A DNA stretch of 64,000 nucleotides from Terriglobia bacterium (lineage in GTDB: Bacteria > Acidobacteriota > Terriglobia > 20CM-2-55-15): positions 619,983 to 683,982 of the forward strand of contig CBDCKF010000001.1 of NCBI GenBank assembly GCA_965218085.1. Direction: 5' to 3'. The translations under genes and the position numbers were made by a program. Positions 60,543-61,919 of the stretch are shown piece after piece (positions within the stretch are counted from its first letter, which is position 1; every line of letters begins with the position of its first letter). The notes beneath the pieces are model-generated. The model worked only from the letters and a program-made list of their open reading frames with translations, had not been told where the DNA came from and made no database searches.

Positions 60543-60551
60543 ATCAGGGAT
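60543..60551. repeat. 9-bp target-site duplication ATCAGGGAT, left copy. The right copy is at 61877-61885.
   Basis: Identical 9-mers directly abut the IS terminal inverted repeats. Confidence 0.6.
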
Positions 60552-61876
60552 CAGTAGTGTCCCAACGTTAGTTGAATAGATTCAGTTGTTTGGAGTTCTC
60601 CGAGTCTGAATCTTGATAGTCGAGGGCGGAAAGGGCCTTTAAAAGGGGCGTTTTTTCGAAAACGGTGACGCTGACGATCTGGAGAATTCGGTAGAGACTG
60701 GCGTTGACATTGAGCCGTTTTTTCACGATGGCAACAAGCAAATAGACCGAGATGGCGGTCCAGATTTGAGTCTTCAGCGCATTGGGGGTTGTGCCGTAGA
60801 ACGCCTTGATGCGTAGGTGCTGTTTGATCCACTTGAAGAACAGTTCGACCTGCCAGCGGCAGCGATAGAGTTGGGCAATGGTCGCCGCTGGCAGCGCGAA
60901 ATTGTTGGTCAGGAAGACGAGGTACTTGTTGTGCTCTCGATCGAGAAAGCGAATGCGGCGGAGTTTTTCTGGATAGCGCTTGCGAGAGTAAAAGCCGCGT
61001 AGGCTGATGATCTGATCGCTGAGGACTCCGGTGGACTTGTCCACATCGAGTGAATAAAGACGATTGAAGACGAAATTCTTTTTCGCGCGTGTCACGAAGA
61101 ACGCCGCCGCGACACTGATTTTGTACAGGCGCCGGAAATCCAGATAACCGCGATCCATGATGTAGAAGGCTCCGGGCTCGAAGGCGAGTTGATCCAGAAG
61201 ATGGAGGTCGTGAACTTTGCCGTGTGTAATCAGGATAAAGGAAGGAATATTGCCGCGCAGATCCAGAACCGTGTGCAGTTTGACAGCTCCCTTGTGCTTG
61301 CGGAAGCGTGCCCACGGGAACAGGGAAAGACACAGATCGATCGTTGTGGCATCGAGTGCGTAAACCGTCTGCTTGAGGTCGACACCGAAACTGTCGCCAA
61401 CATAGAGCTCGCGAGCCATGGAGATCAGCGTCTGGGCGAAGTCGGCATAGATACGCCAATCGCGCACCTGATTCGCATTCGCAAGGGTGTTGCGGGAGAC
61501 GCGGCTGCGAATGCCCATGTGATAAAGCTTCGTGCCAGCCGAACGCAGACAGGCTTCGATATCGCGCAGACTCTCCCGGTAGGTCAATTGCGCGAACGCC
61601 ATGCACAGAAACTGATCCCAGCAGGAAAAACGTTGGAGTTTGTAGTTGCCACGGTAGCGATCGACGCATCGACGAAAGTCTTGACGGGGAAGAAAGTCCA
61701 TCAGCTGAGAGAAGATCGTCTTGCCGGAATTCATAGGCCGCCTCCTGCCGCAAAGTCGCGGAAGGATGCCGCCAGTACGCAATCAAATTCAAATCGATTT
61801 TGGCTCTCAGCCGATCTAACATGACCATTCTCAATAACCTATGGGCGACGCCCATCTAAACGTTGGGACACTACTG
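60552..61876. mobile_element. Intact IS4-family insertion sequence (1325 bp) with perfect 18-bp terminal inverted repeats CAGTAGTGTCCCAACGTT
   Basis: The IRs at 60552-60569 and 61859-61876 are exact reverse complements. A single DDE transposase ORF lies inside. Flanked by a 9-bp TSD. Confidence 0.8.
60568..61734 (-). CDS. IS4-family DDE transposase (388 aa)
   Basis: Start at MNSGKTIFSQLMDFLP (61734). Typical IS4 motifs ...YALDATTIDL...; YIMDRGY (DDE D2 region); ...RWQVELFFKWIKQHL (E/K region). Confidence 0.85.
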   Translation of the reverse strand: MNSGKTIFSQLMDFLPRQDFRRCVDRYRGNYKLQRFSCWDQFLCMAFAQLTYRESLRDIEACLRSAGTKLYHMGIRSRVSRNTLANANQVRDWRIYADFAQTLISMARELYVGDSFGVDLKQTVYALDATTIDLCLSLFPWARFRKHKGAVKLHTVLDLRGNIPSFILITHGKVHDLHLLDQLAFEPGAFYIMDRGYLDFRRLYKISVAAAFFVTRAKKNFVFNRLYSLDVDKSTGVLSDQIISLRGFYSRKRYPEKLRRIRFLDREHNKYLVFLTNNFALPAATIAQLYRCRWQVELFFKWIKQHLRIKAFYGTTPNALKTQIWTAISVYLLVAIVKKRLNVNASLYRILQIVSVTVFEKTPLLKALSALDYQDSDSENSKQLNLFN

Positions 61877-61919
61877 ATCAGGGATATTTTGTATCACGAG
61901 GATCACGAGGGGGATAAGC

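Follow-up and report, generated by a model that had tools for sequence, protein, structure and literature searches.

An insertion sequence has recently inserted into the spacer between two gene modules of the window, the window being the whole stretch of 64,000 nucleotides (64 kb) that was analysed. Judged from its sequence, it is very probably an autonomous and currently active copy of an IS4-family insertion sequence, and the 153-bp spacer that it has entered is chromosomal. This young insertion is polymorphic: the same locus occurs without the element on a contig from a different sample, and a third allele of the locus carries a relic of it.

The element and its insertion site

Direct reading of the sequence yielded an element of 1,325 bp (window 60552-61876; Table 1). 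Its terminal inverted repeats are perfect over 18 bp and each of them is directly abutted by one copy of the 9-mer ATCAGGGAT. The inverted repeat and the direct repeat were picked up independently by a repeat finder. Both had been described in the earlier note; the inverted repeats could be placed to the base, and the 9-bp duplication was found on either side of the element. Even with three mismatches allowed, the 18-mer CAGTAGTGTCCCAACGTT has just two matches in the 64-kb window. In shuffled sequence the mean number of matches was 0.03, and two matches were obtained in none of 100 shuffles. Of the three occurrences of the 9-mer in the window, two flank the inverted repeats; the chance that two abutting 9-mers match is approximately 4^-9.

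Inverted repeats longer by 3 nt in the outward direction (GAT/ATC) are formally possible, but they leave no direct repeat. The empty allele, which contains exactly one ATCAGGGAT, decides for the reading with an 18-bp repeat and a 9-bp duplication. This allele is located on L005, a 73.7-kb contig of another sample, which was retrieved by look-up of the downstream small protein. L005 aligns to window positions 54586-60551 and 61877-64000 with an overlap of 9 bp; it has one ATCAGGGAT and no element, and thus supplied the IS-free allele with which the earlier note had proposed to compare the locus.

The element contains a single long ORF (ATG at 61734, preceded by AGGAGG at 61741-61746), whose stop codon (60568-60570) overlaps the transposase-distal repeat. 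An alternative upstream TTG start would give a protein of 404 aa. The leader of the transposase gene includes a palindrome, ATGGGCG-A-CGCCCAT, at 61841-61855. An Rfam scan of positions 58000-64000 (E<=1) gave no match, and scans of JGI metagenomes gave 0 matches for the left junction and 0 for the transposase-proximal repeat with the palindrome. No further copies of the element were detected within the window by tblastn and blastn; ORFs of similar size at 50973-52190, 26232-27428 and 35723-36901 proved unrelated to the transposase.

Table 1. Features of the element, of its surroundings in the window and of the insert in contig L095
Feature	Position	Strand	Remarks
Left target-site duplication copy	60543-60551	no strand	9 bp, ATCAGGGAT; single in empty allele L005
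IRR, transposase-distal inverted repeat	60552-60569	+	CAGTAGTGTCCCAACGTT
Transposase gene	60568-61734	-	388 aa; DUF4372 N-terminal domain and DDE_Tnp_1 catalytic domain
Transposase leader, presumed promoter region, non-coding	61735-61858	-	Direct reading; AGGAGG at 61741-61746
IRL, transposase-proximal inverted repeat	61859-61876	-	Exact reverse complement of 60552-60569
-35-like TTGGGA	61863-61868	inside IRL, read outward	Candidate from relaxed scan
Right target-site duplication copy	61877-61885	no strand	9 bp, ATCAGGGAT
-10-like TATTTT	61885-61890	+	16 nt after TTGGGA; candidate only, relaxed scan
Upstream neighbour, B4 paralogue	59719-60432	+	237 aa (public gene call); stop 60430-60432, 119 nt left of the element
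Downstream neighbour, small secreted DUF6152 protein	61920-62327	+	135 aa; Pfam
Downstream B4 gene	62344-63093	+	249 aa, no Pfam family; 16 nt after the small gene
DUF6152 small genes	58278-58679, 61920-62327, 29048-29431, 33103-33615	+, +, -, -	
B4 genes	59719-60432, 62344-63093, 28274-29041, 33655-34545	+, +, -, -	~240 aa, secreted, no Pfam family
IS1182/IS5-like element	L095, first in insert		1,487 bp; CTAG on both sides; 99.9% copy in L004
Native spacer remnant	L095, second in insert		10 bases
IS4-element relic	L095, third in insert		126 bp; corresponds to window 61120-61231 (112 nt), same order and orientation
IS1380-family transposase gene	L095, fourth in insert		381 bits against a cut-off of 180

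The window is chromosomal, as indicated by the presence of the topoisomerase I and DNA polymerase I genes. The named proteins closest to its PolA, ~60% identical, belong to Terriglobia/Acidobacteriota, which makes an uncultured acidobacterium the probable host. The insertion site is the 153-bp spacer between a B4 paralogue and a small gene coding for a DUF6152 protein. Since a gap of 16 nt separates the small gene from the B4 gene downstream of it, the two are probably co-transcribed. They constitute one of several paralogous DUF6152+B4 gene pairs ("cassettes"), at least four of which are found in the window. The small gene had been placed 35 bp downstream of the insertion; the gap between 61885 and the ATG at 61920 is 34 nt, so this distance was right to within one base. 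The ribosome-binding site of the small gene, GAGGGGGA (61908-61915), was left intact by the insertion. Between the insertion site and this ribosome-binding site there is a perfect tandem 9-mer, ATCACGAGG ATCACGAGG, at 61893-61910. The IS-free allele has it too; it could be an operator or a product of slippage.

Some other properties of this region were observed. In each of the small proteins listed in Table 1 the N-terminal hydrophobic segment leads directly into an HHAHG(N/Q)YD motif, which by this position is probably the start of the mature protein. Weaker DUF6152 matches are located near 37218, 21798, 25978 and 32491. When the upstream regions of the four DUF6152 paralogues were compared by eye, no obvious common motif was seen. 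A gene of the metallo-beta-lactamase fold (55858-56898) has an inverted paralogue at 26232-27301, ~29 kb away, with 84% nucleotide identity; the window therefore holds larger duplicated modules as well. The ORF at 23459-24733 (- strand) encodes reverse-transcriptase and group II intron maturase domains and thus represents another mobile element. Just upstream of the first DUF6152 gene, a 119-aa ORF (57882-58241) has a weak match to rve_2 (integrase core) in the public gene table, and is probably the remnant of an older insertion sequence.

A third allele and the downstream gene pair

The third allele was found via the downstream B4 protein, as was Logan contig L094. It is carried by a 31-kb contig (L092/L095) of the same sample from which the extra copies of the element described below were obtained. 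L095 matches window 53735-60436 with 0 mismatches, and therefore shares the SNP haplotype of the window; on the other side it is 100% identical to window 61954-64000. Between these segments L095:6695-10000 stands in place of window 60437-61953, and is made up of the four components listed at the end of Table 1. The IS1182/IS5-like element sits at a CTAG that contains the stop codon of the upstream gene. The IS4 relic differs from the element by five small insertions and 0 substitutions, and the ORF of the IS1380-family transposase continues into it. The small DUF6152 gene has lost its first 34 nt. Contig L094 starts exactly at window 61954, an independent hint of a repeat junction there. Within the relic (L095:8258-8275) a 9-nt net insertion recreates the 14-nt sequence CGAGGGGGATAAGC of window 61906-61919, where the small gene has its ribosome-binding region. 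The insertion may stem from templated repair or from a quirk of the assembly.

The colinearity of the relic and the haplotype common to both alleles indicate that the L095 allele descends from an IS4-bearing allele, in which case the IS4 insertion came first and the further insertions and deletions after it. In 8.7 kb of flank the window and L095 are separated by 0 point mutations. Thus the locus is accumulating insertion sequences. The sister allele gained two more insertion sequences, lost most of the IS4 element and had its small gene truncated, and this suggests that the DUF6152+B4 pair is dispensable and that the locus is decaying. It is also conceivable that the spacer, hit by IS4-family, IS1380-family and IS1182/IS5-like elements in one near-clonal population, is a preferred site of landing or decay, and that the insertions reflect selection to switch the pair off, or to rewire it via a hybrid promoter, rather than neutral insertion; we consider this unlikely.

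In the filled allele the transposase gene (- strand) reads away from the small gene (+ strand), and the native DNA left upstream of the small-gene ATG amounts to 34 nt and contains the ribosome-binding site. For these two reasons a native promoter, or read-through from the upstream genes, would have been cut off or displaced by 1.3 kb. A scan for sigma-70 consensus promoters, whose rules do not cover the promoters of a host that is probably an acidobacterium, detected none in the filled or in the empty allele. No terminators were found in the native spacer of either allele; three terminator-like sites were all inside the element, and their number was within chance. RNA folding of the terminator-like site, the sub-terminal palindrome and the native spacer gave z-scores near 0. 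The most likely consequence of an insertion in front of the small gene would be that transcription from upstream is severed and expression of the DUF6152+B4 pair is reduced through polarity. Of the two outcomes named in the earlier note, silencing thus appears likelier than re-driving of the pair by a weak hybrid promoter consisting of TTGGGA in the repeat, 16 nt and TATTTT, which we see as the minority possibility.

If such a promoter turned on the pair or uncoupled it, the insertion could have been adaptive. Hybrid promoters arising from -35 boxes in the ends of insertion sequences are well known in other families, and of the + strand candidates that precede the small gene in the filled allele, TTGGGA-16-TATTTT (8/12 consensus matches in a relaxed scan) is the best. 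The best candidate of the empty allele, TCGAGA-17-GATATT, is equally weak (8/12 matches) and was split by the insertion. However, the match in the filled allele is under the standard threshold of the scan, matches of this kind are common by chance, and the scan does not cover the promoter rules of the probable acidobacterial host. Moreover, the same -35-like hexamer is present in every copy as part of the conserved repeat, and the loss of the 5' end of the small gene in the sister allele argues against a valuable pair. An adaptive insertion is therefore improbable, and reduced expression through polarity is the reading we prefer. Because the element probably alters expression of the adjoining pair, any interpretation of the paralogous cassette array should mask or flag it.

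Age of the insertion

Five further copies of the element (L001-L004 and L088) were found on two contigs of sample ERZ25072670. All of them are 1,325 bp long and differ from the window copy by 0-1 mismatches, and each is flanked by a different perfect 9-bp duplication (GCCGAACAT, ATTCGGATC, ATGTGGCAT, ATCTCGAAT and ACGCTTTAT). Four of the copies (L001-L004) are located within ~130 kb of one 534-kb contig (ctg256211_8x_l, 31-159 kb). This stretch is dense in other transposases and in genes for HNH nuclease, methyltransferases, PglZ, integrase and terminase, and looks like a mobile-element-rich island or a defence region.

The perfect duplication, the practically identical copies elsewhere (0-1 mismatches) and the empty site in L005 together establish that the event was recent, as the earlier note had claimed from the perfect inverted repeats and the perfect duplication. 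The argument from the duplication holds. That from the inverted repeats does not: for this element perfect repeats are no evidence of recency, because the 18-mer is unchanged in relatives that are only ~67-73% identical.

L005 differs from the flanks of the window by nine SNPs clustered in 60353-60420, one SNP at 63659 and a 20-bp indel at 63788. The cluster spans 68 bp in the 3'-terminal part of the upstream B4 gene and causes the changes F->Y, E->Q and G->P in addition to silent changes, the remaining 5.9 kb upstream of the insertion being identical between L005 and the window. It may be a patch of gene conversion or recombination. The indel, GAAAGAGACGACGCCAGGAA, is present in L005 and absent from the window and from L095.

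These differences bear on the question whether L005 is ancestral or a revertant produced by precise excision. Recombination between two 9-bp duplications can restore a single copy, although precise excision is rare. Since L005 is separated from both element-bearing alleles by the SNP cluster, the single SNP and the indel, it represents a separate lineage and no recent derivative; reversion is very unlikely, and in either case the element would be mobile and the insertion polymorphic. Even less credible is an old and fixed element whose perfect ends reflect selection on transposase-binding sites. The 18-bp repeat is indeed conserved across elements ~67-73% identical, but an old, fixed state is refuted by the empty site with its near-identical flanks; in addition, the duplication is perfect, and the five other copies, each of 1,325 bp, have 0-1 differences from the window copy. 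Finally, a repeat collapsed or misjoined during assembly has a negligible probability: the element is multicopy, and related copies are often at contig ends in short-read assemblies, but the empty allele has a single ATCAGGGAT, which a misjoin would not turn into a perfect 9-bp duplication. To the left and to the right of the element the window is colinear with L005, and a third, independent contig has a colinear relic at the same locus.

The filled, empty and decayed alleles demonstrate that insertion sequences move faster than point mutations accumulate in this uncultured population, and suggest that one DUF6152+B4 pair is expendable. The element could be used as a marker of ongoing insertion-sequence activity.

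The transposase, its relatives and known systems

Assignment to the IS4 family, made in the earlier note, was borne out by the transposase as well as by the CA termini and the 9-bp duplication. The protein scored 280.3 bits with the NCBIfam model NF033592 ("IS4 family transposase", cut-off 115), and was far under the cut-offs of IS1634, IS701, IS5, IS982 and all other insertion-sequence family models of NCBIfam. Pfam identified DUF4372 (E=2.2e-35) and DDE_Tnp_1 (E=1.2e-33). The catalytic residues are D128, D194 and E297. The family signature in region C1, Y-(2)-R-(3)-E-(6)-K (PMC2266710), is complete (Y290-R293-E297-K304; YRCRWQVELFFKWIK at residues 290-304), and D128, D194, E297, Y290, R293 and K304 are invariant in 26 homologues. 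Members of the family have a single unframeshifted DDE transposase ORF, here of 388 aa, and a duplication of ~8-13 bp, here of 9 bp, versus 4-6 bp in IS701, ISH3 and IS1634.

The transposase had been described as intact. The ORF is complete, a protein identical over all 388 aa is known from 20 contigs, and all 8,000 of the 8,000 scored homologue candidates were at E<=1e-20, most of them likewise 388 aa long. Solved structures in the PDB, including that of the Tn5 transposase, gave no meaningful sequence or profile match. The predicted structure, based on an alignment of 26 homologues that are 76-100% identical, had a mean pLDDT of 43.7 and was too poor to compare.

Within the family, subgroup IS4Sa is characterized by CA------T ends, a length of 1,150-1,750 bp and a duplication of 8-10 bp (PMC2266710, Table 1). 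The ends of the element (CAGTAGTGT..., with C1, A2 and T9), its 1,325 bp and its 9-bp duplication fit IS4Sa, a placement based on ends, size and duplication. The IS10 subgroup, with which size and the 9-bp duplication would otherwise be compatible, was rejected since its ends begin with 5'-CT (PMC2266710, Table 1) and those of the element with 5'-CA.

Species-representative genomes were scanned with the 18-mer plus four half-specified bases, and at least 82 stretches matched. The matches listed are from Acidobacteriota, Nitrospirota, Geobacterales, Betaproteobacteria, Aminicenantes, Planctomycetota, Verrucomicrobiota and others, and among them were 25 full-length genome elements, one placement being counted twice. 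These relatives, which come from many phyla, are 1,251-1,501 bp long, mostly 1,316-1,362 bp among the matches listed and mostly 1,314-1,362 bp when the plasmid elements described below are included. They are only ~67-73% identical over the body, yet have kept the 18-mer with 0-3 mismatches, and therefore the termini of the element are under functional constraint. Perfect duplications of 9 bp flank 15/25 of the genome relatives, and duplications of 10 bp flank 3/25. In 21 duplications, which have a GC content of 36%, position 1 is A in 17 and position 9 is T in 15. A genuine transposase would be expected to show such a symmetric A-N7-T, AT-leaning target preference. In one Aminicenantes genome bin, three related IS4-family copies (L016:135-1463, L065:3906-5251 and L082:5476-6837) have a common flanking 10-mer, AGGTTTGACC or the reverse complement of it, which indicates that the target of insertion was a repeated sequence.

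A tblastn search against plasmids revealed ISPosp4 (60.2% aa identity) and ISGme2 (57.7%) as the closest named relatives; the best unnamed match was in Ca. Magnetococcus massalia (68% aa). By the convention of ISfinder, isoforms are roughly >95% identical in amino acid or >90% in nucleotide sequence, and the identities of 60.2% and 57.7% rule out that the element is an isoform of ISPosp4 or ISGme2. It is a distinct, unnamed but typical member of the IS4 family and could be deposited in ISfinder, its value being mainly in annotation. The three plasmid elements (ISPosp4, 1,328 bp; ISGme2, 1,314 bp; Ca. Magnetococcus massalia, 1,325 bp) all have a 9-bp duplication (3/3), and the terminal core CA(G/C)TA(G/C)TGTCC is common to them. 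Thus ISPosp4, on plasmid 2 of Polaromonas sp. JS666, and ISGme2, on a plasmid of Geobacter metallireducens GS-15 (both RefSeq names), are like the element in size, duplication and terminal core, but differ from it in the inner half of the repeat (CCGGTTAAA versus CCCAACGTT). No papers on ISGme2 or ISPosp4 were found, and neither is mentioned in PMC2266710 and its supplements.

With the better known IS10 (Tn10) and IS50 (Tn5) the element has in common the DDE/YREK class of transposase and the 9-bp duplication, and with IS10 also a similar length. To our knowledge, the transposases of IS10 and IS50 are without a DUF4372 N-terminal domain. Both elements are presumed to move by cut-and-paste via hairpins. 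By analogy with these members of the family, the transposase would bind the conserved terminal repeats and probably excise the element by cut-and-paste through hairpin intermediates. Staggered cuts of 9 bp would then be made in the target, preferably an AT-rich one with the symmetric A-N7-T pattern, and their repair probably generated the ATCAGGGAT duplication. The element differs from both in its ends, which start with CA, whereas those of IS10 and IS50 start with CT or CW (PMC2266710, Table 1).
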